The notes under the pieces were generated by a model. That model saw only the letters and a program-made list of their open reading frames with translations, was not told where the DNA came from and did not search any database. Shown here piece after piece: positions 5,118-45,700 of a stretch of DNA of 64,000 bases. This stretch comes from Mobula hypostoma. Lineage: Eukaryota. The stretch is from positions 67,086,001 to 67,150,000 of the forward strand of contig NC_086108.1 of NCBI RefSeq assembly GCF_963921235.1. Direction: 5' to 3'. The position numbers were made by a program, and so were the translations under genes. Position 1 is the first letter of the stretch, and every line of letters starts with the position of its first letter.

Positions 5118-6389
5118 AGACTAGACTGAACTCCTGCTCAGCAAGGACCTGGACCCATTGCAATTTGCCTGTCACCACAATAGGTCAATGGCAGATGCAA
5201 TCTCAATGGCTCTTCACATGGTTTTAGACCACCTGGACAACACAAATACCTATGTCAGGATGCTGTTCATCGACAATAGCTCAGCTTTTAATACCATCAT
5301 TCCCACAATCCTGATTGAGAAGTTACAGAACCTGGGCCTCTGTACCTCCCTCTGAAATTGGATCCTTGACTCCCTAACTGGAAGACCACAATCTGTGCGG
5401 ATTGGTGATAACATATCCTCCTCATTGACGATCAACACTGGTGCACCTCAGGAGTGTGTGCTTAGCCCGCTGCTCTACTCTCTCAATACCCATGACTGTG
5501 TGGCTAGGCATAGCTCAAATACCATCTATAAATATGCTGATGATAGAACCATTGTTGGTGGACTCCAAGATGGTGATGAGAGGGCGATCAGGAGCGAGAT
5601 ATGCCAACTAGTGAAGAGGTGTCACAGCAACAACCTGGCACTCAGTGTCAGTAAGACGAAAGAGCTGATTGTGGACTTCAGGAAAGGTTAGATGAAGGAA
5701 CACGTACCAATCCTCACAGATCTCAGAGGACCTAACCTGGTCCCAACATATTGATGTGGTTATAAAGAAAGTACAGCAGTGACTATACTTCATTAGGAGT
5801 TTGAAGAGATTTGGTATGTCAACAAATACACTCAAAAACTTCTACAGACGTACCATGGAGACCATTCTGACAGATTGCATCACTGTCTGGTATGGGGGCT
5901 ACTGCACAGGACCTGAAGAAGCTGCAGAAGGATGTAAATTTAATCAGCTCCATCTTGGGTACTAGCCTACAAAGTACCCAGGACGTCTTCAAAGAGCGGT
6001 GTCTCAGAAAGGCAGCGTCCATTATTAAGGACTGCCAGCACCCAGGGCATGCCCTCTTCTCACTGTTACCATCAGGTAGGATGTTCAGAAGCCTGAAGAC
6101 ACACACTCAGCGATTCAAGAACAGCTTCTTCCCCTCTGTCATCCGATTCCTAAATGGACATTGAACCCTTGAACACTACCTCACTTTTTAAATATATATT
6201 ATTTCTGTTTTTTCCCTGATTTTGAATCTATTCTATATATATATATATATACTGTAATTGCTTGCTTTATTTATTTATTATTATTATTATTTTCCTCTAT
6301 ATTATGTATTGCATTGAACTACTGCTGCTGTTAAAAAATTTCACGACACATGCCGGTGATAATAAACCTGATTCTGATTCTGATTCTGA
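5118..6389 (+). mobile_element. Rex1/Babar-type LINE, 5'-truncated and decayed
   Basis: RT fragments [42 protein letters not shown] and HPGHALFSLLPSGR. Ends in aataaa followed by a (GATTCT)n tail. Confidence 0.9.
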
Positions 6390-8094
6390 GATACTGAATC
6401 TGGAACCAAAAAAAAAGCGCTGTTGCACGAGCTCAACATATCAGGCAGCATTAATAGTTTTGATCAAAACCCTTCATCTGGACTGATAGAGGGGAGATGG
6501 CTAGTATAAAGAAGTGAAGGGTAGGATGGAGCAAGTGCAGGGAAATGATTGGTGGATCCAGGTGAGGAAGGGTTGCTTGGCAGATGGAGTTGGATGGGCA
6601 CGTGAAGGGCAGAGGTAGTGACACAGACTGGGAAGGTAATGAGTGAACAAAAGGCTGGAGATATGGAGTCCCATGTGACTACTATCCCTCCATTATTTGG
6701 TTCCACCCTTCCCTTACTTTTTGTCAGATTCTATAGCCTGCAGCCATTTGTTGTTTCCACTTATCACTTCTGTTCTGCCCTTAGAGGCACTGCTAAGTTT
6801 GCTAGTCAGGGGTTAAAGCTGAAAAGGGAAGTAGCAGGTTTGTCCCTAGTCTGTTCTGAGTGACCTGCTCACATTTGGCTCAACAAGTGATCTTAGAAAT
6901 ATGAAGATGATTGCCAGAAATGATGTCCCATTCTGATAGCAGCATCTGTGTGGATTTCAAACAAAGATAGTGTTGGTTCCGTCTGCAATGGTATAACTAA
7001 TGTGATCTCAGTTCAGATGTTTATATACATATAACATATGTATATTACTTATAATCTTTATTCCTATACATTTCCACCCCAACAAACCACCACCACTCTT
7101 TCCTCAATACCATACATCCCTAGTTTGCTATGATATACACAAATACCATTTCACCACAGCATCCATCACTGAAGATTTGCTGCTCGTGCTCATTCTCTTC
7201 ATTCCTCTTAGTACTTACACTCCTCGGATAAGCAAAGACCTGATCAAAAAACTGAATTCCAATCTAACCAACTACTTCCCATTTTCTTTAACTATGTGTA
7301 ATTTCCTCTCCAAGAGCAACATTGAAATATAAATTCTTTATTCAAGCACAATATTTTCCACATTAAACCACCTTTCCCTGAATTAAAAATAAAATTGATT
7401 TTGTTCACGTTTTTAAGATTTTTCTGTGGTAAAACCATTGACAAAGTCCACTTTTCAGTGTTTTTCACAGTTTCTGATGTGCACTTTAGTCCATTTGCCT
7501 GTTATTTCTTAATATCGCATTTTCTCTATTCCAACTTTTACCTCTGTACTTATGGAACTCTTTTCCATAAGTTCTGAGTCATATTTTGGCCCCTAGTTCT
7601 CTGAACTTGTTCTTTTGAGTTTAACCTTGTTCATAAATATAGACTTGCCAACCTCTAATTCATAGTTTGTGCTGGTTGTTCCAGTTATGGAAAACTCATT
7701 TTCAATTACCAGATCTAAATGCACTTCACATGTTGTAAAGCTTTGTATAGGTTTAAGCAGAACGTACTTGGCATTGAGTTAACTTTGAAATGGTTGCAAA
7801 CTCACATTGTTATTTTTACTATAATATTGGAACCAATTGTACTAACAGTCACAACGCAAGATTGCAACCATCTTTCTCCAATAGCTTGAGGCAGGCGTAT
7901 TCACAGTGTTAGCTAATAAATCACTAACCAATCAGGCTCATTGGTGCAAGAAGGAAAGGGTTATCGTCAAAAGAATAGCCTTTGGCTACAGAATTATAAC
8001 AATAAGTTGCTAACTCAAGTGAAGAACTGGTAGTTGTAATTTAATACTGAAAAAAAATGTGAGCTTATACACTTTGGCATGGTCATTAAGCCCA

Positions 8095-10858: not shown

Positions 10859-13569
10859 ACAAGCAGATGTTGCTAGCTATTGCTCCCAATACATTGTTCA
10901 CAATGAAGTGGAAAAATATTGATCTCCTAGAAGCAGGATTTGCAATGGTTGGAGAGTGACTATGAAGCTGCTCGTGAAGCAGTAGCCAAAATGTCATTGC
11001 CTTTCCAGAGTGATTAGGAAAAAGAGAAGTAAGAAACTTTTGAATGGGAACCAGCCTTTGATATTGTGAAGATCGCTGTAAGGTGGATGGTCATAAAGGA
11101 AGGCTAACACCCCTTAGGGCAATGATTGAATAGTTTTCCTCAGTCTGCTTACAGAATCCACTGGAATTTGCCACTGATAGTTATTGAGCTTCTCCTCCAT
11201 GATAGAATTCAGAAAAGCAGGGGCGCTGTACACACTTGGCATTTTCAGCTGTGGTGATGTATAGTATCAATCAGAACAGCCATTGGTTAACTGAGGTAAA
11301 GGGTAAAGGTTATTTAAAGATCAAGCACTCAGACCTGGCACTAAACTCATGGTCTACAGTGCAATAATAATCCCTTCTTTTGTACTTGCATCTGAGACCT
11401 GGGGTCAATGTGGAAGACAACTCAAGGCACTGGAATGATACCATAAACACTGGTTCTGCAAAATCCTCCATATTAACTCAAATGATAACTGAACCAATGT
11501 CCTCACCTAGGCCCACAACCAACACTGAGGCCTCTGTTACACTCCTGTAACTGCACTGGGCATTTTCACTCTTGATCATAATGCAGAAACTGCCAAAAGC
11601 AAAGCAACTGGTATTCCATGACAAAAGGCATAAGACAATGAGTATAAAGTGAGGAAATACAGAGGAAATATGCCATCAATGAGGTAAATCAGGAAGCAAA
11701 TTTTCACAAAAAAGTGAGTAGAAATCTGGAACTTGCACAGGGTGTGTGAATGTTGGGTCAATTGACATTTGAGGACTTAGGTTAATAAAACATTAAATAA
11801 AAGATTGCAGGAGATGTAGGTTAAAAGTAGATAAGTGGAGTTGAAATACAAGTTAGCTATTATCTAAACAAATAAGACTGCTGCATGCATTAATGCATTC
11901 TCTGCTCAGTGTTCCAATGAACCATGAAAAACTTGGCGTGGGAATCTAATGTACAGTATTATATACAGACTTGTCATACCTGGGGGGTCCTTCGCTTTGT
12001 GCCTGCACATTAGTTACTTAAAGTAAGCATCATTAAACAAAATCTAAAGGCATCTACCTTAAATATTGGACAGTGGACATTTCCTGTACCATTTATCTGG
12101 GTAAGTGTGAGTGCTCTATCATTACAAAATATAAACTGTTTACATATCTGTTCATTTACTGTTTGTTCTTCAGCCAGCATTTCCAAGTGTGTATCATAGT
12201 ACAGTGATATGGAAGTCAAGTTAAACCAAGTCAAGTTTACTGTTATTCGCACAAGAGCAATGAAAAGTTCCCTTGCAGCAGCATCAAAGGCAAATACAAG
12301 CAGATTTCACAAGAAAAACATACACATAAATTACATACAACTTCTGCAAAAAAAACACAATTAAAACAAAAAATAGTATGTTTTAGTGCAAAGTGCAGCT
12401 GCCCTCCTACTCCTGTGCTAGATTCTGCACCGAGCCTAAGGCAGAGATCAGCCATGCTGAATGCAAGGCTGCATTTAGTTTGTACTTGGTACCTTTGCTT
12501 TACAACGGTTCTGTCAGGCATTAATACTGTGTTTCAATCGTTGGACTGGGTTTGCTGACTTCAATGGAAAGGTTGAGTGAAGAGAAGTGTTTTTCTTTCA
12601 CATTACTAAATTTACCTAATTCAAATGGATTAAATGTTTGTAAATAAGCATATTTTTAAAATAAATTATGATGTTTACTTTTTTTTATTGTTTTCAGTTA
12701 TTTTCTGAGTGCCTGATTATGAGAGACATTTAGAAACAGTTTAAAATGACCATCAGCTTGTTTTAAGGGAAGAGCCTCAGTCCTGACATAGTGAACATTC
12801 ACACACGTCACTACGTTGCAGGATGGCCACTACAATGAGTTCTACTGATCAAATGGACTCACAGAACCACAGAAGATCTGTGTGGCTTCAAGGACCACAT
12901 GGAAATGGATGTACATGAAGCATGGGTCTTGTTAAATACAACATGCCCTTTTCTGCCAGTTCATTGAGAGTTTCCAGTTACCATGTACCTGGTATCAATA
13001 AACAAGGATAATCTTGTTGATAAATTCTTGGCCACCAATAGAAGACACTTGGATTGCAATAATTTCTAATTCAAGCCATATTGTTAGAAGTACTCGCATA
13101 CAGTTTCAAAATGTTTGTTTTGAAATGCGGTAAAAGGCTGAGAATGGAGCATTTCATTAAATTTATTGATACATTTAATAAAAGTGCACATTGCTTCCTT
13201 GAATACAAACAAAAGCGAATAAAGAGCAAATTCTTGCAGTGTTCAAATATATGGATTTTATTTTTTGTTGAAACTCTTTCTGATCTACACAGCTATATTT
13301 TTCTCAGCAGGTATTACCTTAGAAGTCATTGGTAAATTATTGATTTCTTTTTCATGCTTTAAGTATTGGAATTTTAAATTATAATTATCATTTCAAATAA
13401 TAGTATTCTTGGAAAAATAGACTTTTGCACTGTTCAAGCCAAGTTTTAAATCTAGGTTCGAATCATTTCTGATGAAGAGCCTTCAACTTGAAACATTAAC
13501 TCTGTTTCTCTCTCCAGAGACACTGTTTAACCTGCTAAGTATTTCTTGTTTTCTGTTTTTATTTTATTT

Positions 13570-15254: not shown

Positions 15255-16295
15255 TGCATCGGCTTCCACAACACTCAAGAAACTTGACACTGTACAGGAC
15301 ATAGCAGCCCACTTGATAGGCAATCCATCCACAACCAATCATTTACTCTCCCACCAACACACTACAGCAGCCCTTTGCACCATTTACGAGATGCACTGGA
15401 GTAACTCACCAAGGCTCCTAAGGCATCATGTTCCAAACCCACAAACTCTTATCAGCAAAAAGGTTAAGAGTAGCAAAAACACAGGAAGGCCATCTCATTC
15501 TAGTTGCCTCCTAAGCAACACATGATCCTCACATGGAAGTACACTCAGAGGCCATTTTGTTAGGTACCACCTGCACCTAATAAAGTGGCCACTGATTATA
15601 TGTTCATGGTCTTCTGCTGCTGTAGCCCATCCACTTGAAGCTTCAACATGCGATGTTTTCAGCGATGCTCTTCTGCATACCACAGTTGTAACACATGGCT
15701 ACTTGAGTTACTGTCGCCTTCCTGTCGGCTTGAACCTAGTCTGGTCATTCTCCTCTGACCTTTCTCATTAACAAGATGTTTTCACCCATAAAACTGCCAC
15801 CCACTGGACATTTTTTTTTGTTTTTCACACTAATCTCTGTAAACTCTAGAGACTGCTGTGCATCAAAATTTCATTTTCTGAGATACTCAAACCTTCTTGT
15901 CAGGCACCAACAGTCATTCGACTGTCAAAGTCACTTAGATCACATTTTTTCCCAATTCTATTGTTTGGTCTGAACAACAACTGCACCTCTTAACCATGCC
16001 TGCATGCTTTTATGCATTGCGTTGCTGCCACATGATTAATTGATTAGGGATTTGCATTAATGAGCAGATGTGTAGGAGTATTTAATAAAGGGCCATTGAG
16101 TATATATCGTTGTTCCTTTACTGTCGCTGGGTCAAAATCTTGGAACTTCCTCCCTAATAGCACTCTGGGTGCACCCACACTCCAAGAACTGCTGTGGTCA
16201 AGAGGCAGCTCACTACTGTCTTCTCAAGGGCAATTAGGGATGGGACGTTAAACGATGGTTCAGCCTGTGAAACCCACATACCTTGAATGAATAAA
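15255..16295 (+). mobile_element. Old LINE 3' end (CR1/L2-like), interrupted at a TA by a Tc1 derivative
   Basis: Reads aaacttgacactgtacaggac..gcagcccacttgatagg (LDT.QD.AA.LIG), continues after 16103 with tggaacttcctccctaatagcact, and ends tgaatgaataaa. Confidence 0.6.
15542..16102 (-). mobile_element. Non-autonomous Tc1/mariner derivative
   Basis: TA|cactcagaggccattttgttagg ... taataaagggccattgagta|TA termini. The minus strand retains a Tc1 N-terminus (GKKCDLSDFDSRMTVGA). Confidence 0.75.
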
Positions 16296-16534
16296 GATAC
16301 TGGTACAAGAATGATATTGGATGATTGTTTGATGCCGTTCCTAAACAAGAAGCAGCCCATCCCGATACACTTCAGATCATAGTTGGGGACTTCAATCAGG
16401 CTTATTTGAAGAAAACCCTGCCCACTTGCCATCATTATATCACCTGTAGCACCAGAGGTCCCAACACACTGGACACCTGTTATACTAAGATAAGGAATGC
16501 CTACCGTTCCATGTCCAGACCGCATAGTTAGTCA

Positions 16535-16564
16535 TTTCCAGCATCTGCAGAATTCCTCGTGTTT
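16535..16564 (+). mobile_element. Solo 30-bp PLE 3' tail with 13-bp TSD
   Basis: tttccagcatctgcagaattcctcgtgttt is flanked by gcatagttagtca at 16522-16534 and 16565-16577. Confidence 0.9.
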
Positions 16565-16895
16565 GCATAGTTAGTCAGAGGCTTTTTTCCAGGGCTGAAA
16601 TGGCTAACATGAGAGGGCACAGTTTTAAGGTGTTTGGAAGTAGGTACAGAAGAGATGTCAGGGGTAAGTTTTTTTACGTAGAGAGTGGTGAGTGCATGGA
16701 ATGGGCTGCCAGCAGCTGAGGTGGAGGTGGAAACAATAGGGTCTTTTAAGAGACTCTTGATAGGTACATGGAGCTCTGAAAAATAGAGGGCTATGGGTAA
16801 CCCTGGGTAATTTCTAAAGTAAGTAGATATTTGGCACAGCATTGTGGGCTGAAGGGCCTGTAATGTGCTGTAGGTTTTCTATGTTCTATGTTCTA
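16565..16895 (+). mobile_element. CR1 LINE 3' fragment
   Basis: Contains RGHSFKV..FFT.RVVSAWNGLP motifs and a (TTCTATG)n tail. Confidence 0.9.
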
Positions 16896-18689
16896 ACTCG
16901 TGTCTGAGAAGCGGCTTAGATCCACTCCAATTTGCCTATTGGAGCAACATGTCCACAGCAGATGCAATCTTACTGACTCTTCACTCAACACTGCTACACC
17001 TGGACAGCAAAGATGCACACATCAGATTGCTCATTACTGACTGCACTTCAGCATTTAATATGATTATCCCCTCAAAACTAATCAATAAGCTCCAAGACAT
17101 TGCCTTCAATACCTCATTGTACAATTGGATCCTTGATTTCCTCACCTGCAGATTCCAGTCCATTTGGATTGGCAACAACATCTCCTCCATGATCTCCATA
17201 AGAACAGGTACACCCCAAGGCTCCAGTATGCTAGAGTGTACAGCAAGTAGAGTGTTAGCCTCCCACTCTACTTGCTGTACACTCCAGCATACTGGAGGGA
17301 GATGTAAAATCTGGCTGAGTGGGGCCACAACAACAACCTCTTACTCAAAGTCAGCAAAACCACAGAGCTGATTATTGACTTCTGGAGAAGGAAACCAGAG
17401 GTCAAAGAGCCAGTACTCATCGCAGGATTAGAGGTGGAGAGGGTCAACAAATTTATATTCCTCTGTGTCATTATTTTGAAGGACATGTCCTGGGGCCCAG
17501 CCCATAAGTGCAACTATGAGGAAAGCATGGTAGTGTCTCTACTTCCTCAGGAGTTTGCAGAGATTTGGCATGACGTCTAAAACTTTGACAAACTTCTATA
17601 GATAAGTATTTGAGAGTATATTAATTGGCTGCATCACAGCCTGGTTTGGAGACACCAATGCAGTTGAATAGAAAATCCTACAAAAAGTAATGGATACAAC
17701 CCAGTCCATCAAGGGTAAAGCCCTCCCCACCATTGAGCACATCTACATGAAATGCTGTTGCAGGAAAGCAGCATCATTAGGGATCCCCACCACACAGGAC
17801 AAGCTCTCTATTGCTGCTGCCAATAGAAAGAAGGTACAAGAGTCGCAGGTTCAGGAACAGTTACAATCTCTCAACCATCAGGCTCTTGAACCAAAGGGGA
17901 TTAACTTCACTCAGCCTCACTTGCCCCATCAATGAAATGTTCCCACAACCAATGGACTCACTTTCAAGGATTCTTTATCTTATTACTCAATATTTATTGC
18001 TTAGTTAGTTATTATTATTGTTTATTTCTTTTTGTATTTGCACACTTGTTTGTATTTTGCACACTGATTGAAGGCACAAGTTGGTGCGATCTTTCATTGA
18101 TTTTGTTATGGTTATCACTATAGATTTATTAAGTATGCTCTCAAGAAAATTAATCTCAGGGTTGTATATTGTGATAGATTTGTACTTTGATAATACATTT
18201 ACTTTGAACTTGGAACTTTAATTGGCACAACAAAATTATTTACTAACATACTCATTCTCCAATTCTTTTTCCATCTTTTGCTCTGGAAAAAGCGCATTTT
18301 TCTGGAAATACAAGAAAGAAATTTTGTGCATTCCTACATCATACTCCAGTGTGGAATTTGCAGATTAAGAACAGCCAAACAATTATGCTGAACATTTGCA
18401 GGGATCTCAAATCCTGCAGCAAGCCAAATGAGGCCACTATCTAAGAGGTAGTTTACTTGGTGTAGTGATGGTGAATCACAGTGCAATTCAACCTCAGCAG
18501 CAAAGTCTTGGCCATTTCAGTCTGATTTCTGTTTGACAGTCAATTTGCAGAAGTCCCTTTCTTACTTCTATTTAGGCAGTAATATAATGGTGGTTTACCA
18601 GCAAGATCTAGCTTTATATTTCATGTGAGTTTTGATTATTCTTTGCATTAATGGCCTGCTGAGTGTTTCCAAGACTTTCAGCTTTGGAT

Positions 18690-20659
18690 TTGCAATATTT
18701 CTAGGGCTTGGGGCTTCCTTAATAGCTCTCACCTTGTCCTCCACAGGGCAAAGCCCCTCAGCTGTGATCTTGTGTCCCAGGTAAGTCACACTCAATGCCA
18801 GGAACACACATTTTTCGCGTTTCAACCACAGCCCTGCGTCTGAGAGCCTCTTCAGCACCCATTCTAAATTAGCCAGATGCTCCACCTCCAGAGCCCCCGT
18901 GATCAAAATATCATCAAGGTACACTGCTACGTGTGGAATCCCCTGCAGCAAAGTGTCCATTGACCTTTGGAAAATGGCAGGGCTGGACGCCACTCCAAAC
19001 ACCAGGCGATTGTACTTTAATAATCCCTCATGCGTATTAATTGTGACGTACTCCTTTGAATCCTCGTCGAGCAGCAGCCGTTGGTAAGCGTGGCTCATGT
19101 CCAGCTTTGTGAACAGCTTACCCCCTGACAGGGTCACAAACAGGTCATCCACCCGTGGCAATGGGTACTCCTCCAGCTCAGAGATCTGATTCACCGTAAG
19201 ATTATAATCCCCACATATCCTCACCATTTTGTCTGCCTTCAAAACTTGTACAATGGGAGCTGCCTACCTTGAAAACTGGACAGGCTCAATAATGCCCAGC
19301 CTCTGTAAACGTTCCAGCTCCTCCTCGACTTTGCCTTTCATGGCATAGGGCACCGACTTGGGCTTGAGAAAATGTGGTGTGGCCTCAGGGTTGACATGGA
19401 GTTTCACTGTCACGCTCTTCAGTGTTCCTAGCTCGTCCCTGAAAACGTCACTACACCACTGCAGAATGTCCTCCGTCGTGTGTGCAGACTTAATTTCATG
19501 CCAGTTTAGCCGGATTTTGTGAAGCCAATCGCGACCCAAAAGACTGGAACCCCTGCCCTTAGCTACCAACAGACTGGCTTCAGCCTTCTGACCCCCGGCT
19601 GAAATGTCCACATATAACACACCTAAATGAGGTATGGACTGCCCCGTATAGGTCCTGAGTTTGAGCTTTGACGGTCTAATGGGAGGCAGGTTGGACCCTC
19701 AGGTCCTCCTGTAGATCTCCTCACTAATGACCGATGCAGTAGCCCCTGAATCAATCTCAAACTTAATGTCCTTTCCCCTGACAGTAACTGTGGCATAATA
19801 TGGTTCAGGTGGTTCCTCATCTGTTTCCACTCCAAACATGTTGTAGGCACATGCTGCCTCTCCATCTGCTTCTTTTAGATGGTGTGTGGCTGCCTGAGCC
19901 TGTTGAGTTTTCCCCTGGCCAGGCTTAATCTTACCCTTTGAACTTCTGCACTTTTTAGCTAAATATCCCTTTTTACTACAAGCATGGCAGACAGTGTCTT
20001 TGAATTTGCAATCATTTGCATAGTGCGCCCCTCCACACCGGAAACATTCCACCCGCTTTGCCTGTTTATCAGTCTCCCTCCTGACTTGGTGCACTGCCGC
20101 TGACTGCGACCCCCCCCCCCCCCCCATGTCCTTTCTGGATATCCTTAACATTATTAGCAGCCATCTCCATTCCTTGGGCAATCTCTAAGGCTTTCTCGAA
20201 AGTCAGTGGTGGGGTTTCCCCTAACAGGCGGCGTTGTATGCTGCCATTATTAATGCCGCATACCAATCGATCATGGAGCATGTCTTCCAACACCACTCTG
20301 AAATCACAATGCTCTGACAGCTGCCAAAGCTCGGCCACAAAATTAGCCACAGACTGACCTGGCTTCCTGAAACGGCTGTGAAACTTACACCGTTGGACTA
20401 TCACAGAAGGTTTTGGATTGTAGTGGTTCCCCACGAGTTTGACCAGTTCGTCATATGGAATGTCCCCCAGTTTCCGTGGTGCAGTTAAATTCCTTATCAG
20501 CTTGTAAGTCTTTGCCCCACACACACTCAGGAGAATAGAATGCTTCTTAGCCTCCTCAGTAATTCCATTAGCACAGAAGAAGTGTCCCAACCTTTCCTCA
20601 TAATCCGGCCAGTCCTCGGTTGCCTCCACAAAACCAACGATAGTTCCAAATGTAGCCAT
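18690..20659 (-). pseudogene. gag-pol polyprotein pseudogene (frameshift and stops)
   Basis: ORF pieces 20069-20659, 19699-20181, 19264-19620 and 18595-19242 are collinear gag, PR and RT. Confidence 0.9.
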
Positions 20660-20966: not shown

Positions 20967-22224
20967 GGTATCTTCAGGATATCAGAGTCGTAGAGTCACA
21001 GAGCAAAACAATATGGATACAGGCTCTTTGGCCAAATGAGTTCATGCCAACCATGCTGACCACCTGGCTAGTCCCAATTCCCTGCATTCAGTCCATATCC
21101 CTCTAAGCCCTGCCCTTCCATGTACGTATCTAAGAGTTTCATAAAGGAAATTAATGTACCTGACTCAACTGCTTCTTCTGGCAGTTCATTCCATGTACTC
21201 ACCACCCTCTGCGTGAAAATGTTTCACCCAGGTCCCTTTTAAATCTTTGCCCTCTTCCCTAAACTTACGATCCCTACTTTTAGACTCCCTGCCCTGGGGA
21301 AAAGACCGTTACTATCCATCTCATTGATGCCTCTCATAATATTAAACATTTCTATGAGGTTACCCCTCATTCTCCTGTGCTCCAAGCAATAAAGATTCAG
21401 CCTAGCCAACCTCTACATATAACACAGACCCTCTCGTCCTGGCAACATCCTCATAATTTTTACTGCACTCTTTCCAGTTCGACTATGTATTTACAACAGG
21501 GTGAGTAAAACTGTACACAGTGCTCCAAGGACAGCCTCATCAATGACTTAGATAACTGCAACATAATGCCCCAATTTCTATACTCATTGCCCTGACTGAT
21601 GAAGGCCAATGTGCTAAGTACGTTTTCCATCACCCTATCTACCTATGAAGCTGCTTTCAATGAACTATGCACGTAGATCCTTCTGTTCCATTACACTCCC
21701 TAGTGCACTACCATTCGTAATTTAAGTCCTGTGCCGGTTTGACTTAATAAAGTTCTTCACCTGACATTTATCTACTTAGCCAATTACCTGACCACAAGAT
21801 AATTCAGAAATTAATCTATTTGTGACTGCTTGGCCCACTTCCCTTACTGATCAATATCCTTTCTTCACTAGCTATAATACATCCTAATTTTGTGTCATCC
21901 ACAGACTTGCTGAACAAACCCCATGCTTTTGCATGCAAATCATTTATGTAAGTTACAAATCACAAGGGTTCCAACACAGACCCATCTGGCACACTACTAG
22001 TCTGTGGTCTCCATGCCCAGAAACAAATCTGCTTCCTACTTCCAGGCCGATTTAGAATCCACCTAACTTGCTTTACCTGGATTCCATGGGATCAGCCAAA
22101 TATGCTGGACCTTGACGAAGACCTTGCTGAAGCTCAGACAACAGCCACTGCCCTACCTTCAAGCAACACACATCAAAGTTGCTGGTGAACGCAGCAGGCC
22201 AAGCAGCATCTATAGGAAGAGGCG

Positions 22225-22262
22225 CAGTCGACGTTTCAGGCCGAGACCCTTCGTCAGGACTA
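22225..22262 (-). ncRNA. Minimal type I hammerhead ribozyme (inverted pLTR arm)
   Basis: Exact reverse complement of 24796-24833. Confidence 0.88.
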
Positions 22263-22556
22263 ACTGAAGGAAGAGTGAGTAAGGGATTTGAAAGCTGGAG
22301 GGGGAGGGGGAGATGCAAAATGATAGGAGAAGACAGGAGGGGGAGGGATAGAGCCGAGAGCTGGACAGGTGATAGGCAAAAGGGATACGAGAGGATCATG
22401 GGACAGGAGGTCCGGGAAGAAAGACGGGGGGGGGTGACCCAGAGGATGGGCAAGAGGTATATTCAGAGGGACAGAGGGAGAAAAAGGAGAGTGAGAGAAA
22501 GAATGTGTGTATAAAAATGAGTAACAGATGGGGTACGAGGGGGAGGTGGGGCCTAT

Positions 22557-24502
22557 CTTCTGCCTGCTCTGGATCTCTTTATCGCTAACTGCCGACGGGA
22601 CATCAACCGTCTCGACTTCACCGCACCTTGTACCCATTCCAACCTCACTCCTTCGGAACGCTCTGCTCTCCACTCCCTCCGCACTAATCCTAACATTATT
22701 ATTAAACCCGCTGATAAAGGGGGTGCTGTTGTAGTCTGGCGTACTGACCTCTACCTTGCCGAGGCACAGCGACAACTCGCGGATACCTCCTCTTATTTAC
22801 CCCTTGATCGTGACCCCACTAAGGAGCACCAGGCCATTGTCTCCCACACTATCAACGACTTTATCCGCTCAGGGGATCTCCCATCCACTGCTACCAACCT
22901 TATAGTTCCCACACCCCGCACTTCCCGTTTCTACCTCCCACCCAACATCCACAAACCTGCCTGTCCTGGCCGACCTATTGTCTCAGCTTGCTCCTGTCCC
23001 ACCGAACTCGTTTCTGCATACCTCGACACTGTTTTATCACCCCTTGTTCAATCCCTTCCGACCTATGTTCGTGACACTTCTCACGCTCTTAAACTTTTCG
23101 ATGATTTTAAGTTCCCTGGCCCCCACCGCTTTATTTTCACCATGGATGTCCAGTCCTTATATACTTCCATCCCCCATCAGGAAGGTCTCAAAGCTCTACG
23201 CTTCTTTTTGGATTCCAGACCTAATCAGTTCCCCTCTACCACCACTCTGCTCCGTCTAGCGGAATTAGTCCTTACTCTTAATAATTTCTCCTTTTGCTCC
23301 TCCCATTTCCTCCAAACTAAAGGTGTAGCTATGGGCACCCGTATGGGTCCTAGCTATGCCTGCCTTTTTGTTGGGTTTGTGGAACAATCTATGTTCCGTG
23401 CCTATTCTGGTATCTGTCCCCCACTTTTCCTTCGCTACATCGACGACTGCATTGGCGCTGCTTCCTGCACGCATGCAGAACTCGTTGACTTTATTAACTT
23501 TGCCTCCAACTTTCACCCTGCCCTCAAGTTTACCTGGTCCATTTCCGACACCTCCCTCCCCTTTCTAGATCTTTCTGTCTCTGTCTCTGGAGACAGCTTA
23601 TCCACTGATGTCTACTATAAGCCTACTGACTCTCACAGCTATCTGGACCATTCCTCTTCTCACCCTGTCTCTTGCAAAAACGCCATCCCCTTCTCGCAAT
23701 TCCTCCGTCTCCGCCGCATCTGCTCTCAGGATGAGGCTTTTCATTCTAGGACGAGGGAGATGTCTTCATTTTTTAAAGAAAGGGGCTTCCCTTCCTCCAC
23801 TATCAACTCTGCTCTTAAACGCATCTCCCCCATTTCACGTACATCTGCTCTCACTCCATCCTCCCACCACCCCACTAGGAATAGGGTTCCCCCGGTCCTC
23901 ACCTACCACCCCACCAGCCTCCGGGTCCAACATATTATTCTCCGTAACTTCCGCCACCTCCAACGGGATCCCGCCACTAAGCACATCTTTCCCTCCCCCC
24001 CCTCTCTGCATTCGGCAGGGATCACTCCCTACACAACTCCCTTGTCCATTCGTCCCCCCCATCCCTCCCCACTGATCTCCCTCCTGGCACTTATCCGTGT
24101 AAGCGGAACAAGTGCTACACATGCCCTTACACTTCCTCCCTTACCACCATTCAGGGCCCCAAACAGTCCTTCCAGGTGAGGCATCACTTCACCTGTGAGT
24201 CGACTGGGGTGATATACTGCATCCGGTGCTCCCGATGTGGCCTTTTATATATTGGTGAGACCCGACGCAGACTGGGAGACCGCTTTGCTGAACATCTACG
24301 CTCTGTCCGCCAGAGAAAGCAGGATCTCCCAGTGGCCACACATTTTAATTCCACATCCCATTCCCATTCTGACATGTCTATCTACGGCCTCCTCTACTGT
24401 AAAGATGAAGCCACACTCAGGTTGGAGGAACAACACCTTATATTCCGTCTGGGTAGCCTCCAACCTGATGGCATGAACATTGACTTCTCTAACTTCCGCT
24501 AG
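22557..24502 (+). pseudogene. PLE reverse transcriptase / GIY-YIG endonuclease, N-terminally truncated, one frameshift at about 24000
   Basis: The frame from 22557 (IKPADKGGAVVV) is in phase with 23142 (MDVQSLYTSIP, QTKGVAMGTRMGPSYA, RYIDD). After a 1-nt shift in the C-run come the linker CKRNKCYTC, VIYCIRCSRCGLLYIGET, RFAEH, HFNSTSH and stop TAG at 24500-24502. Confidence 0.93.
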
Positions 24503-24795
24503 GCCCCACCTCCCCCTCGTACCCCATCTGTTACTCATTTTTATACACACATTCTTTCTCTCACTCTCCTTTTTCTCCCTCTGTCCCTCTGAATATACCT
24601 CTTGCCCATCCTCTGGGTCACCCCCCCCCCCCGTCTTTCTTCCCGGACCTCCTGTCCCATGATCCTCTCGTATCCCTTTTGCCTATCACCTGTCCAGCTC
24701 TCGGCTCTATCCCTCCCCCTCCTGTCTTCTCCTATCATTTTGCATCTCCCCCTCCCCCTCCAGCTTTCAAATCCCTTACTCACTCTTCCTTCAGT

Positions 24796-24833
24796 TAGTC
24801 CTGACGAAGGGTCTCGGCCTGAAACGTCGACTG
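24796..24833 (+). ncRNA. Minimal type I hammerhead ribozyme (3' pLTR)
   Basis: Stem I tagtc/gactg; core CTGACGA at 24801-24807; stem II agg/cct; GAAA at 24821-24824; palindromic ACGT stem III; predicted cleavage after GTC at 24828. Confidence 0.88.
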
Positions 24834-25772
24834 CGCCTCTTCCTATAGATGCTGCTTGGCCTGCTGCGTTCACCAGCAACTTTGATGTGTGTTGCTTGAA
24901 TTTCCAGCATCTGCAGAATTCCTGTTGTCTGCCCTACCTTCATCTATCTTTTGGCTACTTCTTCTAAAATCTATAACAGGTTCATCAAGGACAACTTCCC
25001 ATGCACAAACCCATGTTGACTGCACCTAATCAGACTCTGTCTATTCAAGTGCTGGTAGATCTAGCCCCTCAAAATTTACTCCTGTAATTTCCCTGCTGCT
25101 GCTACATCTCACTAATCAAACAGGTTACACTCCCTCTTCATTAACCTGTCGCTCTGTCACACATCTGCAGTCTATCCTGAAATTTCAGCTGCCTGTCTTG
25201 TTCTGATAGGCCTATAACATCCCATACCTGAGAGCCAATCCAGGTTCTGTGTTCATCTGTTTTACCTGTTAAACCTTAAGCACCAAAATAAATGCATTTT
25301 AACCGACTATTCCTTTCTCTGCCTTTACTAAGTTCTTGGTTATCCTGATTACAAGAGTTGCTTTCACCAGCCACTGTTTTATCCCATCACTTGCTCTTGT
25401 TTAGGATCCCACCTCCCCCACCCCCCACCCAACAATCTAGTTTAAAACTTCTCTCATGGCAAAAGCAAAATTTCCTAGAAGGATATAGAGCTCTCTGTAG
25501 TTCAAGTGCAACCCATCCTTCTTGTACAGGTCCCAATGGTCAAATAACCTGAATTCCTGCCCTCTGTGCCAGCTCCTCAGCTATAAGTTCATCTGGGCTA
25601 TCGTCCTATTTCTGAATTCACTAGCATGTGACACCTGGAGTGATCCTGAGATCTGTTTGCTTGACAACCTGCTTCTTAACTTATTACAGTACTAAATTCC
25701 AGTGCTCATTCTCCAGGACATAAAACCTTTTTCTACCTCTGTACCAACATGTGCAACAACTTTTGGGTGTTT

Positions 25773-27597
25773 AACATAGAACATAAAATAGTACAGCACA
25801 GTACAGTCCCTTCGGCCCACAATGTTGTGCCAACCCTTAAACCGTGCTTCCCATATAACTCCCCAACTTAAATTCCTCCATATACCTGTCTAGTAGTCGC
25901 TTAAATTTCACTAGTGTATCTGCCTCCACCACTGACTCAGGCAGTGCATTCCATGCACCAACCACTCTCTGAGTAAAAAACCTTCCTCTAATATCCCACT
26001 TGAACTTCCCTCCCCTTACCTTAAAGCTACGTCCTCTTGTATTGAGCAGTGGTGCCCTGGGGAAGAGGCGCTGGCTGTCCACTCTATCTAGTCCTCTTAA
26101 TATCTTGTGTACCTCTATCATGTCTCCTCTCATCCTCCTTCTCTCCAAAGAGTAAAGCCCTAGCTCCCTTAATCTCTGATCATAATGCATACTCTCTAAA
26201 CCAGGCAGCATCCTGGTAAATCTCCTCTGTACCCTTTCCAATGCTTCCACATCCTTCCTATAGTGAGGTGACCAGAAATGGACACAGTACTCCAAGTGTG
26301 GACTAAACAGAATTTTATAGAGCTGCATCATTACCTTGCAACTATTAAACTCTATCCCTCAACTTATGAAAGCCAACACCCCATAAGCTTTCTTAACTAC
26401 CCTATCTACCTGTGAGGCAACTTTCAGGGATCTGTGGACATGTACATCCAGATCCCTCTGCTCCTCCACACTACTAAGTATTCTGCCATTTACTTTGTAC
26501 TCTGCCTTGGAGTTTGTCCTTCCAAAGTGTATCACCTCACACTTCTCCGGGTTGAACTCCATAGCCCACTTCTGCATCCTATCAATGTCTCTCTGCAATC
26601 TTTGACAATCCTCTGCACTATCCACACCACCACCAACCTTTGTGTTGTCTGCAAACTTGCCAACCCACCCTTCCACCCCCACATCCAGGTCGTTCATAAA
26701 AATCACAAAACCGATCCTTGTGGGACACCACTAGTCACAACCCTCCAATCCGAATGTACTCCCTCCAACACGACCCTCTGCTTTCTGCAGGCTAGCCAAT
26801 TCTGAATCCACCTGGCCAAACTTCCCTGGATCCCATGCCTTCTGACTTTTTGAATAAGCCTACTATGTGGAACCTTGTCAAATGCCTTACTAAAATCCAT
26901 GTAGATCACATCCGCTGCACTACCCTCACCTACATGCCTGGTCACCTCCTCAAAGTACTCTATCAGGCTTGTTAGACATGATCTGCCCTTCACAAAGCCA
27001 TGCTGACTGTCCATGATCAGGCCATAATTCCCTAAATGCCCGGAGATCCTATCTCTAAGAACCTTTTCCAACAGCTTTCCCACCACAGACGTAAGGCTCA
27101 CTGGTCTATAATTACCCGGACTATCCCTACTACCTTTTTTGAACAAGGGGACAACGTTTGCCTCCCTCCAGTCCTCCGGTACCATTCCTATGGACAATGA
27201 GGACATAAAGATCCTAGCCAGAGGCTCAGCAATCTCATCCCTTGCCTCGTGGAGCATCCTTGGGAATATTCCGTCAGGCTCCAAGGACTTATCCGTCCTA
27301 ATGTATTTTAACAACTCCAACTTTTCCTCTCCCTTAATATCAACATGCTCCAGTACATCAACCTCACTCATATTGTCCTCACCTTCATCAAGTTCCCTCT
27401 CATTGGTGAATACCGAAGAGAAGTATTCATTGAGGACCTCGCTAACTTCCACAGCCTCCAGGCACATCTTCCAACCTTTATCTCTAATTGGTTCTACCTT
27501 CACTCCTGTCATCCTTTTGTTCTTCACATAATTGAAGAATGCCTTGGGGTTTTCCTTTACCCTGCTCGCCGGGGCCTTCTCATGCCCCCTTCTTGCT
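25773..27597 (-). mobile_element. Relatively young CR1 LINE, 5'-truncated ORF2 (RT)
   Basis: ORFs 26703-27608, 26359-26706 and 25837-26331 give NYRPVSLTSVVGK, QHGF, YMDFSKAFDKVPH, GVPQGSVL, KFADN and ERVQRRFTRM. Ends in a TTCTATG-type tail at 25773-25790. Confidence 0.95.
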
Positions 27598-29329
27598 TTA
27601 CCTACCAACTTGAGAATTTCTTGCAGTCTCTCAGAGACATCTTTGAACCTAGCACTTGGTAGGTGTTCATTGTGGTGTTTTGTTTGTGCATCCTCCTCAA
27701 ACTCTCTTTACCAATGTTTAACATACAAACAACTATGAGAAGCAAATATGATATCCACCATCAAACAGACCTGCAAAATAAAATACCACTACTTGTAGAC
27801 ATTATCACCATAACAGATCAAAATTTTCTAATTTTTCTTCAAGTTTTTCTTCTAAATACAGACAAAAGTCTGAAATCCGTTTCTGCAGCAGTACGGAAAT
27901 CGCTGTTCGTTTATCATGGCAATTGATTCTAGCAAAGTTTATCTTGAAGAATGTGCAAGGAACACCATATCAGATTCGACTGAAACCCTGTTAGTGTCAC
28001 TTCACACTTGTTATTTTCTTAGCTGGTGAAGTGTAAGTGATAACTTGAATCCAGTGTGTATACATTTCTGGCACACTCTGCCATTGCCAGCTGCTTCCAA
28101 GCACTGTACACAGTCCGGAACAGTGGAATTTTTATCATCCTTGGTAAGCACCACTGACATTTTGGAGTTTGTCGTCCATGCTCCACTTACCTAAGGAATG
28201 GTTTCATTCCCAAAACATCAAATACAAATAAATTTCAGATTTCTTTTGGAACCTCTTTTGAGGCGGTCCTATGCTATTATTTTCTCCTCCCAATGATTGA
28301 TTCACATTCTTGAAAATTAGTTCTAGAAATACCTCCTGTCCAAAAAGCAAAAAATACATTGACTTCAATCTATAAGGTAACTTGGCTGGCATGAAGATGT
28401 TTTTGATAAGGAATGGCACTCTGGGAAACTATCAGACATCTTGTATAATGTGTGTTTTCTCCCCCCAAATACCTGGTTTACTTTGTGAAAACTTAATGAT
28501 CGCTGTTTACTACCACACTGTGCTGCACTAATGAAATAACCTTCTCCACCAGTTCATATATCCCATTGCCCCCACTTCCAACTTTCAATTCTTCAGGTCA
28601 ACAGGCTTTCATCAGAACCGAGAAAAGTATAACATTTTCTAGTTTTGATGCAAAATCATCATTCTAGAACTAACTTGGTTTCTCCTTCTGCAGATGCAGC
28701 TTGCCCTGTTGACTACTTCTAGTGTTTCTCAATCTTGCATTTCAGACTTCAGGCATTTGGGGTTTTCTTTGCATTTGTATTACATTAGTTTTTGTTTCAC
28801 TGTTTCAAGTTAGTGCTTTCTCCATTGGTTTGGATTTGATTTGCTATGTTTCCATATTGCAGCTAAGAACATGCTCCCAAGCATTCATACTTCCCACATT
28901 TTAAAGTCAATCATTTTCCCTCCCAGTTTTCTGCTCCTCCACCACCACTCACCACCCACCCCATAAGGAGAGAAGTGATTCTGTGCTCCAGGCTCATGGG
29001 AATTCCTCCACTTGGCCAGGCTTCCCAGGTGCCATGGGACAGAAGTCTGCAGGCTTTTGGCTTCAGATGACAGCTGTTGTAGTTGAGCATAGTCCTCACA
29101 AGAAGAACTTTAAATGACTTTTCTATTTGCTGTTCAGTTAATGCTAAGAATAGCCATAGTTATTCGATTGGGCTATTATTTCAAAATCAGATTGCATCTG
29201 GTCAAATATTTAAAAACACTTGCATTCGTTATAGAGAAAACTTTCATGGCAACTCTCTATGTTGGTCCCAAACACAGTTTATGTTTTTACTACATTTTTC
29301 TACATTGACTGTAGTGTTTAGAAGTTAGT

Positions 29330-35676: not shown

Positions 35677-35775
35677 CAACACACACAAAATGCTGGAGGA
35701 ACTCAGCAGGCCAGGCAGTATCTATGGAAAAGAGCAAACAGTCAACGTTTCAGGCCGAGACCTTCATCAGGACTC
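35677..35775 (-). mobile_element. PLE pLTR fragment carrying an intact HHR core (35739-35775)
   Basis: The minus strand reads gagtc-CTGATGA-agg.tctcgg.cct-GAAA-cg-TT-gactg. Confidence 0.8.
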
Positions 35776-38212: not shown

Positions 38213-39820
38213 CAGTGCCTATAAGAAGTATTCACCTACCCTACCCAGAAGTTTTCATGTTTTATTGTTTTACAAGGTTGAATCATTGTGGATTAAATTT
38301 GGTTTTTTTTGACACTGATTAACAAAAAAAGACTTCTTTGTGTCAAAGTGAAAACAGATCTCTACAAAGTGATCTAAATTAATTACAAATATAAAACACA
38401 AAATAATTGATTGCATAAGTATTCACCCCCTTATATGACACACCAAATCATTATGGGTGCAGCCAATTAGTTTTAGAAGGCACATTATTAGTTAAATGCA
38501 GATCACAGTGTGCAGTCGAGGTTTCAATTGATTGTAATAAAAACACTATATCTGGAAGGTCCAGCTGCTGGTGAGTCAGTCTCCTGGCAAAAATGACACC
38601 ATGAAGACAAAAGAACACTCCAAGCAACGCCGCAAAAAGGTTATCGAAAAGCACAAGTCAGGAGATCAATATAAGAAAATTTCCAAGTCACTGAATATCC
38701 CCTGGAGTACAGTTAAATCAATCATCAAGAAATGGAAAGAATATGGCACAGCTGTAACTCTGCCTAGAGCAGGCTGTCCTCAAAAACTGAGTGACCGTGC
38801 AAGAAGGGGACTAGTGAGCGAGGCCACCAAGAGACCTATGATGACTCTGGAGGAGTTATGAGCTTCAGTGGCTGAGATGGGAGAGACTGCATACCACATC
38901 TGTTGCCCGGGTAATTTACCAGTCACAGCTTTATTGGAGAGTGGCAAAAAGAAAGCCACTGTTGAAAAAACCCACATGAAATCTCAGCTAGAGTTTGCCA
39001 GAAGGCATGTGGGAGGCTCTGAAGTCGGCTGGAAGAAGGTTCTTTGGTCTGATGAAACCAAAATTTTAGCAACTAGACTAAATGTTATGTTTGGCATAAG
39101 CCAAATACTGCACATCACTAAAAACACGTCATTCCTACCATGAAGCATGGTGGTGGCTGCAACATGCTGTGGGGATGCTTCACTGCAGCAGGCCCTGGAA
39201 TGCTTGAGAAGGTAGAGGGTAAAATGAATGCAGCAAAATACAGGGAAATCCAGGAGGAAAACCTGATGCAGAGTGCGAGAGAGCTGCTACTTGGCGAAGA
39301 TTTGTTTTCCAGCAAGACAATTACACTAAACATACAAATAAAGCTACACAGGAATGGCTTAAAAACAACAAAGTTAATGTCCTGGAGTGGCCAAGTCAGA
39401 GTCCAGACCTCAATCCAATTGAGAATTTGTGGCTGGACTTGAAAAGGGCTGTTCACTCACAATCTCCATGCAATCTGACAGACTTGAGCAGTTTTGTAAA
39501 GAAGAATGGGGAAAAATTGCAGTGTTCAGATGTTCAAAGCTGACAGAGACCTATCCACACAGAGTCAAGGCTGTAATAGCTGCCAAAGGTGCATCTACTA
39601 AATACTGACCTGAAGGGGGTGATCAATTATTTTGTGTTTTATATTTGAAATTAATTGAGATCACTTTGTAGAAATCTGTTTTCGCTTTGACATAACAGAG
39701 TCTCTTTCTGTTGATCAATGTCAAAAAAGCCAAATTAAATTCACTGTGAGTCAATGCTATAAAACTTTAAAACAGGATAATTTCCAAGAGCGGAGGAGTG
39801 AATACTTTTTATAGGTACTG
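38213..39820 (+). mobile_element. Full-length Tc1-family transposon (IR/DR type), decayed
   Basis: TA|cagtgcctataagaagtattcac ... gtgaatactttttataggtactg. TIRs are about 210 bp with an internal repeat aagtattcacc. Total length 1.6 kb. Confidence 0.95.
38601..39608 (+). pseudogene. Tc1 transposase pseudogene
   Basis: MKTKEHSKQ..paired-like HTH, WKKVLWSDETK, KHGGG..MLWGCF, FQQDN, WPSQSPDLNPIENLW and AKGASTKY*. Contains stops and frameshifts. Confidence 0.93.
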
Positions 39821-42786: not shown

Positions 42787-45700
42787 TAAACAAGATAAAA
42801 TCTACAGATCAAAGGTCTCTAAGGTACATTTAGTGTCAGAGAAATGTATACAATATACATCCTGAAATGTGTTTTCTTCACAACCATCCACGAAAACAGA
42901 GGAGTGCCCCCAAACAATGAATGACAGTTAAATGTTAAAACCTCAATGTCCCCCCTCAGCTCCCCTCCTGTGTGTAAGCAGCAGCAAGCAACAATCCCCC
43001 CCCACTAGCAGAAAAAAAGCATCAGCACCTGCCACCAAGCACTCAAGCGTGAGCAAAACAACGACAAAGACACAGACTTGCAGTACTCCAAAGACTATTT
43101 GTTCACACAGTATTCGACATACCACAGGCTCTCTCTCTCTCCCTAAGAGGTGTCTCATTTCCCAGCGAGAGGGGAGGCATAACAAACAACTCACTGTTTT
43201 ACAATGTTAAAAGTCCGTTGCATCACTTTTTCCGAGCTCTGTGCCCAAAGATCTCAGGTCTCTGGGCACACAGCCTTAGAGATCTTCCTTCTCCCATGAC
43301 ACACCGATCTTCTGCCCCGACACCAACCTTCGATCCGCCCATCTCCAGAGCTACGAGATCTTGGCCTTCCGAAGGCGAGCTGAGCTCTTAGGCCGAGTCC
43401 TTGGCGTGCCAAATAACGGCCAGTCGTGAAATCCCGAGAGCGGGTCCCATTCCTGCAAAGAACCGTTGTCAGCCTGTAACTCCAGGTCAGGGAGTTCAAA
43501 AGGGAAAAACAGAGAAATTAAAGATGGAAATAGAGCTGTTTCTGAAGATGCAAGCAGAGGAGTCGCCGTTAGATGCCATTAATCCTCCTAAGTTCCTCCA
43601 AGTAACACACACAAAATGTTGGAGGAACTCAGCAAGCTAGGCAGCATCTATGGAAAAGAGTGCAGATGAAGTTTTGGGCCGAGACTCTTTGGCAAGACTG
43701 AGGAGTACATTTAAAAGGTGGGGGGGGGGAGGGGAGATAGAAACACAAGATGATAGGTGAAACTTGGAGGGAGAGGGATGAAGTAAAGAGCTGGGAAGTT
43801 GATTGGTGAAAGAGTTATAAGGCTGTAGAAGGGGGGGAGTCTGATAGAAGAGGACAGAAGGCCATGGAAGAAAGAAAAGAGGGTAGGAACACCAGAGGGA
43901 GGCGATGGGCAGGCAAGGAAATAGGGTGAGAGAGAGAAAAGGGGATGGGAAATGGTGTGAGGGGGTCTTTAGTGGAATTTTGAGAAATTGATGTTCATGT
44001 CATCATGTTGGAGGCTACCCAGACAGACTATAAGGTGTTGTTCCTCCAACCTAAGTGTGGCCTACTCACTACAATGGAGGAGGCCATGGACAGACATATC
44101 GGAATGGGAATGGGAAGTGGAATTCAAATAGGTGGCCACTGTGAGATCCCACTTTTTCTGGCGGATAGAGGGTAGGTGATCAGCGAAGCGGTCTCCCAAT
44201 CTACGGTGGGTCTCACCGATATACAGGGTGTCACACCAGGAGTACCAGACACAGTATATGACCCCCAACAGACGCACAGGTGAAGTGTCACCTCACGTGG
44301 TAGGACTGTTTGGGGCCCTGAATGGTAGTGAGGGAGGAGGTGTAGGGGCAGGTGAAGCACTTGTTCCGCTTGCAAGGATAAGTGTCAGAAGGGGGATCAG
44401 TGGAGAGGGGTGAATGGATAAGGGAATCGCATAGGGAACGATCCCTGTGAAAAGCAGAAAGGTGGGGAGGGAAAGATGTGCTTGGTGGTGGGATCCCATT
44501 GGAGATGGCGGAAGTTGTGCTGGACGTGGAGGTTAGTGGGGTGGTAGGTGAGAACAAGAGGAACCCTATCCCTGATAGGGTGGCGGGAGGATGGGGTGAG
44601 AGCAGACGTGTGTGAAATGGAAGAGGGCAGTGTTGATTGTGAAGGAAGAGAAGCCCCTTGCTTTGAAAAAGGAGGACACCTCCTTTGTTCTGGAATGAAA
44701 AGCCTCATCCTGAGAGCAGATGTGGCTGAGATGGAGGGACTGAGAGAAGGGAATGGCATTTTTACAAGTAGCAGGGTGGGACAAGGTATAGTCCAGGTGG
44801 CTGTGAGAGTCTGTGTGTTTGTAATAGACATCAGTAAATAAGCTGTCTCCAGTGACAGAGACAGAGAGATCAAGAAAGGAGAGGGAGGTGTTGGAAATGA
44901 ACCAGATGAATTTGAGGGCAGGGTGGGAGTTGAAGGCAAAGTGGATGAAATTGACAAGTTCAGCATGGGTGCAAGAAGCAGCACTAATGCAGTTGTCAAT
45001 GTAGCATTGGAAAAGCGTGGGATGGTCACCAGTATAGGCTTGGGACACAGACTGTTCCACGTAGCTGACAAACAGACATGCATACCTGGGACCAATGCAA
45101 GTGCCCATGGCAACACCTTTATTTTAAAGGAAGTGGGAGGAGGCAAAGGAGAAATTATTGAGAGCGTTGACAAATTCTGCTAGGTGGAGGGGAACTGGTT
45201 GGTTCTGGTGTCCAGAAGGAAATGGTGAGCTTTATGGTGGTGGATGGAGGTGTTTATGGACTGGGCATCCATAGTAAAAATAAGATGATATGGGCCAGGG
45301 AACTTGAAATCTTTGAAAAGATCCAGAGCATGTGAAGTGTCATGGACGTAGGTAGAAAGGGACTAAACTAGGGGGAATAAAACAGAGTCTAGGTATGCAG
45401 ATAGGAGTTCAGTGGGGCAGGAACAAGCTGAAACAATGGGTCTTCCTGGACAAGCGGGTTTGTGGATCTTATGTACGGGTTAGAACTCGGAGGTGCGGGG
45501 TGCGGGAACTATGAGTTTGGTGGCAGTGGATGGGAGATCCCCAGATCGCCAGAGTCAGTAAGGTTGGTGATGGTGTGGGAGACAATTACCTGCTGTTCCT
45601 TAGTGGGGTCTTTTTCGAGGGGTAAGTAAGAGGAGGTGTCTGAGAGTTGGTGCTGGGACGCAGCAAGGTAGAGGTCAGTACACCAGACTACTGCAGCACC

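Follow-up and report, generated by a model that had tools for sequence, protein, structure and literature searches.

A minimal type I hammerhead motif in the 3' pseudo-LTR of a Penelope-like element of the ray Mobula hypostoma

The element and its hammerhead motif

The 64-kb stretch of Mobula hypostoma DNA analysed here (the window, 64,000 nucleotides) contains an insertion of a Penelope-like element (PLE) whose 3' pseudo-LTR holds a 38-nt minimal hammerhead ribozyme motif (min-HHR) at 24796-24833 on the forward strand, with the letters given in the original prediction confirmed. The insertion and its boundaries are as follows:

22158-24932 (+), PLE insertion, 5'-truncated and frameshifted, with a Neptune-type linker and a 14-bp target duplication
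22148-22161 (+), left copy of the target-site duplication, 14 bp, overlapping the element end by at most 4 nt
22158-22555 (-), inverted 5' pseudo-LTR, the same as 24500-24900 save 3 nt
22225-22262 (-), twin of the 24796-24833 min-HHR, with the same sequence, in the inverted pseudo-LTR
22556-24002 (+), reverse transcriptase (RT) region, beginning at residue 247 of 889 of the homologue P0011
23999-24502 (+), CX4CxxC linker and GIY-YIG endonuclease, in a frame different from that of the RT, with a frameshift near 24000
24500-24900 (+), 3' pseudo-LTR, pyrimidine-rich, starting at the endonuclease stop codon
24901-24932 (+), tail, about 30 bp long and absent from the left end
24929-24942 (+), right copy of the target-site duplication, 14 bp

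Since the homology starts only at residue 247 of 889 and the frame changes near 24000, this copy of the element is 5'-truncated and broken. A 401-nt inverted repeat, whose arms differ only by 3 nt in a C-run, bounds a single insertion, and because the motifs at 22225 and 24796 lie in the two arms of that repeat they belong to one insertion and are not independent. The features of endonuclease-bearing (EN+) PLEs found here are an RT followed by a C-terminal GIY-YIG domain, inverted pseudo-LTRs, a tail, and a target duplication; an inverted pseudo-LTR, tail and target duplication form the published PLE layout (PMC8557442, PMC3846280), in which pseudo-LTRs may be direct or inverted and a tail of 30-40 bp is optional, and the tail signature is described in PMC8557442 and PMC11167929. 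The closest proteins to the RT are 91% identical in Mobula and 86% in Hypanus, and the ratio of observed to expected CpG, 0.26 for the window, reaches 0.63 in the ORF region. Judged by its near-identical twin repeats and the high CpG ratio of its ORF, the insertion is young.

The ORF at 23981-24502 carries a CX4CxxC linker. Linkers of the form CX2-5CxxC between RT and endonuclease are described for Neptune and also for Nematis (PMC8557442), which places the element with one or the other; a related locus (L019) bearing the motif of an Acropora Neptune element tips the choice towards Neptune. The linker together with this one matching published motif thus favours assignment to a Neptune-type clade. 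Four Mobula gene models (P0030, P0121, P0122 and P0001) encode proteins containing sequence of the same PLE family, and the names among them include chitinase domain-containing protein 1 isoform X1 and STARD3 N-terminal-like isoform X3; this reflects either exonisation or an annotation artefact.

About 300 nt separate the motif from the GIY-YIG stop codon that precedes it, and the motif is sense to the ORF. Its parts are:

24796-24800 with 24829-24833 (+), helix I, 5 bp
24801, 24805, 24806, 24807 and 24821 (+), core positions C3, N7, G8, A9 and G12
24808 (+), unpaired A between positions 9 and 10.1
24809-24812 with 24817-24820 (+), helix II, 4 bp with a 4-nt loop and a G10.1-U11.1 pair
24824, 24827 and 24828 (+), core positions A15.1, U16.1 and C17

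Both this copy and its twin at 22225 hold all 11 invariant bases of CUGANGA, GAAA and UH, and the 24796 copy has type I topology with a palindrome at 15.2-16.2 (ACGU) in place of a true helix III. The cut had been predicted after C24828, and this is the right site, since hammerhead numbering makes 24828 position C17. The predicted core bases and ACGU palindrome likewise hold, but the 3-bp stem II proposed with them does not: an unpaired A after A9 and a G10.1-C11.1 pair occur in 17/17 matches from related loci, which sets the register of helix II as an A followed by 4 bp, and folding of the helix as A plus GGGU/GCCU gives -7.0 kcal/mol vs -5.6 kcal/mol for the 3-bp register, which was rejected on both grounds. 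In the predicted best fold of the monomer the palindrome is tied up with the core. Folding z-scores for five stretches included none that was significant (best -1.24). By its sequence 24796-24833 is a genuine minimal type I hammerhead in a PLE 3' pseudo-LTR, and its identification as one of the type I motifs of PLE pseudo-LTRs thought to cut as dimers is borne out alike by the sequence, the related loci and the published description (PMC4209133).

Related loci, published motifs and copies in the window

A structural descriptor (core, both helices of at least 3 bp, palindromic 15.2-16.2) found three matches in the window, with C3 at 24801 (+), 22257 (-) and 35770 (-), and none in each of 100 dinucleotide shuffles of it; a loose pattern alone was a weak discriminator, with 13 matches vs 5.0 expected and 2/100 shuffles scoring equally high. 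The hammerhead search suggested in the original prediction had a divided outcome: the Rfam scan returned no hammerhead family among its 11 matches (E up to 10), while our own descriptor and a covariance model were positive. That model, built on 12 motifs from related loci with window sequences excluded, recovered 8 copies in the window at E<=0.002, the next match having E=0.45. An nhmmer search with the motif gave 18 matches, of which 16 were aligned and two weak ones (E=12, E=17) left out. A metagenome scan with a pattern drawn from the flank behind the motif had 0 matches.

The related set comprises 80 metagenome loci (278,691 bases) found with the RT alignment. The descriptor matched 17 times, 14 of them on the element strand in 14/80 loci and three on the opposite strand, and had 0 matches in 20 shuffles of these loci. 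Eleven of the 14 element-strand motifs lie 96-219 nt behind the endonuclease match, the other three before the ORF. Among relatives the core is fixed and the stem sequences vary, helix I changing on both sides (12 aligned rows, leaving out L008, which equals L004 over the motif, the three minus-strand matches, and L079, which has a longer palindrome). Over these 12 rows pairing stands at 94.4% and the covariation score is 0.745 vs 0.17 when shuffled; this and the contrast of stems and core are partly circular because the rows were picked for pairing. In L035 (at 338) and L040 (at 323) the motif stands upstream of the ORF in a direct 5' pseudo-LTR, and these are probably full-length units; L004 and L019 have an inverted twin, as in the window.

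Minimal hammerheads of metazoan PLEs were described in 2014 by Cervera and De la Pena (PMC4209133), with the consensus CUGANGA-H ... GAAA-N-palindrome-NUH, a helix I of 3-5 bp and an unpaired base between 9 and 10.1. Like these, the 24796 motif combines type I topology, the core, the unpaired base and a helix III reduced to the palindrome with a site in the pseudo-LTR; most of the published copies are single and decayed, and an opposite-strand 5' twin is figured (Fig. S4A, PMC4209133), as is likewise the case in the window. The species in Table S1 and Fig. S3 of that paper include no cartilaginous fish, and in this the ray copy differs. Its short 4-bp helix II and U11.1 also occur among the published examples: the G10.1-C11.1 pair exceeds 80% in the consensus, with G-U in several motifs (Fig. 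S3, PMC4209133). The Acropora digitifera Neptune motif (Table S1, Fig. S3, PMC4209133) equals that of L019 from helix I to helix I; it shares with the window motif a 4-bp helix II opening in GGG and a CG palindrome, and differs from it in helix I and loop II. Whereas the window pseudo-LTR measures about 400 nt, the distance between endonuclease and motif is about 105 nt in L014 and L019.

Two other systems invite comparison. The Anolis Poseidon element PAc (Frangieh et al. 2024, PMC11167929) resembles the window element in having a pseudo-LTR hammerhead followed by a tail, with a frame overlapping the motif; unlike the ray family it belongs to the Poseidon clade, has no cysteine linker, and has a protein-dependent cut shown by experiment. 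Non-LTR retrozymes (bioRxiv 10.64898/2026.07.22.740005) carry type I hammerheads from PLE pseudo-LTRs and are reported in one chondrichthyan genome; they are head-to-tail tandem units with at least two complete hammerheads, unlike the window elements. No direct tandem pair of motifs was found in the window, where copies on one strand come no closer than the roughly 580 nt between two decayed ones. Our literature search met no catalogue of this ray PLE family, although the supplements of the bioRxiv preprint may list chondrichthyan families.

Besides the 24796 copy and its twin, the copies in the window include:

428-465 (-), min-HHR with the core retained but the palindrome lost (CA), following an endonuclease-end remnant at 717-868 (-)
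1736-1773 (+), decayed copy following an endonuclease remnant (879-1468), with 2 changes in the core
3661-3698 (+), min-HHR, core kept, palindrome lost (CA at 15.2/16.2)
13465-13501 (+), diverged copy, 11 core bases kept, palindrome lost, missed by the descriptor
35739-35775 (-), min-HHR from an older subfamily, which retains core and palindrome, has U17 and lacks 1 nt at the helix II base
43661-43700 (-), decayed copy terminating an older PLE (about 43595-45789, -), with 4 changes in the core
47264-47309 (-), first of a head-to-head pair, G5 changed
47311-47355 (+), second of the pair, G12 changed, palindrome lost
49630-49668 (+), copy that an inversion junction severs at C3, lacking the 5' strand of helix I
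56976-57013 (+), decayed copy terminating an older PLE (about 55243-57106, +), with 2 changes in the core

All 11 bases of the invariant core are present in 6/16 copies (428, 3661, 13465, 22225, 24796 and 35739), and core and CG palindrome are both kept in three (22225, 24796 and 35739). Each of the other ten has between one and four of these bases altered; G12>A, found in 6/15 independent copies, is the change that decay of the CpG at 11.1-12 would produce. Five copies had been called intact, and a copy is indeed present at each place, but at 428-465 and 3661-3698 the palindrome is lost (CA, not CG), and that at 35739-35775, with core and palindrome kept, has the helix II deletion and U17 listed above. 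The CA at 15.2/16.2 is a mismatch within the 4-bp helix of a dimer; one published Latimeria motif also shows CA at the palindrome (PMC4209133), so this loss alone does not put a copy outside the family. Degenerate copies had been placed near 1735, 2320, 13470, 35440, 47270-47350, 49630, 55070 and 56980, and a copy is found at each of these, with two further ones at 43661-43700 (-) and 6460-6486 (-). The claim that a hammerhead sits in every terminal repeat is too broad, given that 10/16 copies are altered in the core and some repeat pieces have no motif, those at 16534-16566 and 59783-59853 retaining only the part behind it.

Several other details of these copies were seen. A 13-nt tandem duplication directly follows the 3661 motif (about 3700-3730, +). 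Short PLE insertions at 47219-47443, 49596-49755, 54977-55164 and 3582-3780 consist of motif and tail with an inverted piece at the 5' end; the head-to-head arrangement is discussed as a self-priming signature in PMC3846280.

Selection, decay and alternative roles of the motif

Conservation was counted over 15 independent window copies (the twin at 22225 left out), as changes relative to the column majority. An excess of core over flank conservation, whose absence the original prediction named as refuting it, did not appear against the adjacent 27-nt flank, with changes in 20/163 core cells vs 53/391 flank cells (p=0.78). When the comparison takes in all 56 nt of flank, the core does look better conserved (20/163 vs 176/798, p=0.004), but leaving out the three copies that diverge most brings this to p=0.12, and the distal flank is a mixture of subfamilies with ragged ends; as a signal of selection it was rejected as fragile. 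As far as the 15-copy sample shows, the inserted copies in the window decay neutrally.

Public sequencing runs give another view of the family. Four runs (8805, 6317, 103 and 1419 contigs, region covered 24640-24960) were compared, their contigs having been matched to the 24796 copy at at least 80% identity, so that they favour its letters, and their RNA status being guessed (in the run table 18/22 rows are only guessed to be RNA, and all are contigs). At the CpG formed by C7 and G8, C>T accounts for 8%, 12%, 69% and 2.6% of depth, but G8>A does not reach 4% in any of the runs; at the palindrome CpG the two sides change similarly (2-13% and 2-16%). G8 is conserved while N7 varies, as catalysis would demand, and on this pattern of letters selection appears to keep the hammerhead in source elements.

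Position 11.1 bears on a different reading, that catalysis was lost in the ray subfamily through U11.1 and the motif was kept as a protein-binding signal or as coding sequence at an ORF start. The 24796 copy has U where 17/17 related matches have C, and T is the majority in all four runs, with C at 16-40% of depth; one frame is open through motif and tail, and Anolis catalytic mutants are unimpaired in insertion in vitro (PMC11167929). A G-U pair at 10.1-11.1 is present, however, in several published motifs (Fig. S3, PMC4209133). Within the window C stands at 11.1 in 6/16 copies, and four of the younger-type ones differ (C in 47309, 47311 and 49630, T in 3661), which offers CpG decay as an alternative cause; the retention of G8 while N7 varies in the four runs also speaks against lost catalysis. 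We regard this reading as improbable. The favoured reading, to which we give high confidence, is that of a standard min-HHR of a ray Neptune-type family, selected in source elements and decaying neutrally in the passenger copies seen here.

The sequence before the motif raises the matter of splicing:

24781-24798 (+), pyrimidine tract that ends, where the 5' edge of helix I begins, in two AGs (24793-24794 and 24797-24798)

This stretch is a weakly supported candidate splice acceptor, folding predictions pair it with the core in unspliced RNA, and the ribozyme might be gated by splicing: the pseudo-LTR would be an intron abutting helix I, and its pyrimidine tract would mask the core until splicing unmasks it. 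Such gating would add to the favoured reading and not replace it. The tract and AG stand directly before helix I. Folding with the native upstream 30 nt puts helix II at a predicted probability of 0.02; removing them raises it to 0.69, and shuffling them gives a median of 0.42, with values as low as the native one in about 2/60 shuffles. The three other window copies tested are not masked beyond their shuffles (fractions 0.28, 0.35 and 0.10), however, and in 0/11 related loci does this fraction fall below 0.13. A protein search with the frame open through the motif gave 6 candidates, among which 2 Mobula gene models contain the region internally. One of them, P0122, joins host-like sequence to the family motif exactly at the first AG; the other, P0121, already matches two codons upstream of the AG, so that it reads through and gives no support for an acceptor, which is therefore backed by 1/2 models. 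The Penelope intron of Drosophila virilis does run up to helix I and end there (PMC4209133), but U-rich flanks are already part of the published consensus (PMC4209133). An alignment of 4 pseudo-LTRs shows no conserved donor, and no spliced junction was seen in the public contigs over 24640-24960. On balance we think splice gating unlikely, at about the level of lost catalysis or a shade below it. Were it true, the same acceptor would let dispersed copies splice into host mRNAs, as P0122 suggests, and would place a potentially cleavable hammerhead in mature host transcripts; it would also account for PLEs retaining a weak ribozyme right next to an intron.

A second pyrimidine tract with AG, followed by ATG, lies at 24845-24851 (+), 15 nt behind the motif, and is common to most copies; by its letters it is possibly an acceptor or a start codon.

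Dimer cleavage and the fate of read-through transcripts

For the ray family a mechanism can be drawn from published PLE work. In source elements the hammerhead would probably process the element's own tandem transcript: two adjacent pseudo-LTR copies would pair through ACGU and swap helix I strands, and the cut after C17 would likely be helped by the element's protein. A Schistosoma min-HHR shows no cut as a monomer and a weak cut as a dimer or trimer (PMC4209133). The Anolis PLE hammerhead cuts only with the element's protein, with no RNA-seq reads ending at the site in that account (PMC11167929), and it is not needed for insertion in vitro, where catalytic mutants are unimpaired (PMC11167929). 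Among the window copies the nearest-neighbour model puts the active fold of the homodimer at -11.5 kcal/mol vs -22.0 kcal/mol for two monomers, although a model that omits tertiary contacts, Mg and protein would disfavour dimers known to cut too. In this reading the window copies are passengers of dead insertions; that at 24796 is intact only because its insertion is young, and with no near partner and a place inside a long inverted repeat it is probably inactive here.

The original prediction had gone further, to a long transcript across the window with several same-strand hammerheads able to pair and cut it. This expectation finds no support in the copy survey, which leaves core plus palindrome in only 1 copy on the forward strand and 2 on the reverse. 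As an explanation of the motifs, the idea would be that scattered same-strand copies, or family RNA acting in trans, pair and cut host read-through RNA. The two intact reverse-strand copies (22225-22262 and 35739-35775) can be drawn as a nested double hammerhead, but they are 13.5 kb apart, for which an ideal chain gives an effective concentration of about 3e-7 M, and their active dimer is modelled at -12.0 kcal/mol vs -19.0 kcal/mol for two monomers (again leaving out tertiary contacts, Mg and protein). The forward strand has a single intact copy, its 3661 partner lying 21 kb away and lacking the palindrome. Transcription of either strand would make the antisense pseudo-LTR before the motif, giving a 400-bp duplex of -878 kcal/mol; this antisense arm, 2.5 kb from the 24796 copy, is predicted to bind the best copy in any read-through RNA. 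Trans partners are possible if the runs are RNA, the family being abundant in them (8805, 6317, 103 and 1419 contigs), yet natural Xenopus retrozyme dimers cleaved in 1/9 cases (bioRxiv 10.64898/2026.07.22.740005). Nor did a host domain appear: Pfam searches of 121 of the 391 ORFs of at least 55 aa, plus 9 long ORFs, gave only transposon domains and one weak match (E=0.007), in a scan that short exons could escape, and the window could be intronic within a host gene. Cutting of host transcripts is, in our estimate, very improbable, more so than either splice gating or lost catalysis.

We thus return to the standard min-HHR of a ray Neptune-type family. The kind of motif has been known since 2014 and the window adds a new ray member, so the finding is an ordinary one; what it adds is a known motif in a ray family that the 2014 species tables (PMC4209133) do not include. 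The in vivo role of PLE hammerheads is described as still open (PMC8557442), and a vertebrate family that is both young and abundant could serve in testing it, this locus giving no gain in testability over the Anolis or Xenopus elements.

Other elements share the window with the PLE copies. Remnants at 18595-20659 (-) and 58620-59105 (-) hold gag-like, protease and RT frames in pieces (Pfam RVT_1, aspartyl protease) and come from LTR retrotransposons that we take to be Gypsy-type. LINE-type RT remnants (Pfam RVT_1) lie at 25837-27707 (-), 52946-54088 (+), 16874-17371 (+) and 5125-5688 (+), and a Tc1/mariner-type transposase remnant with Sleeping Beauty HTH and DDE_3 domains lies at 38541-39543 (+). 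Two near-perfect hairpins, at 15537-15603 and 17220-17298, match Rfam miRNA families below gathering scores and are more likely transposon-derived inverted repeats.
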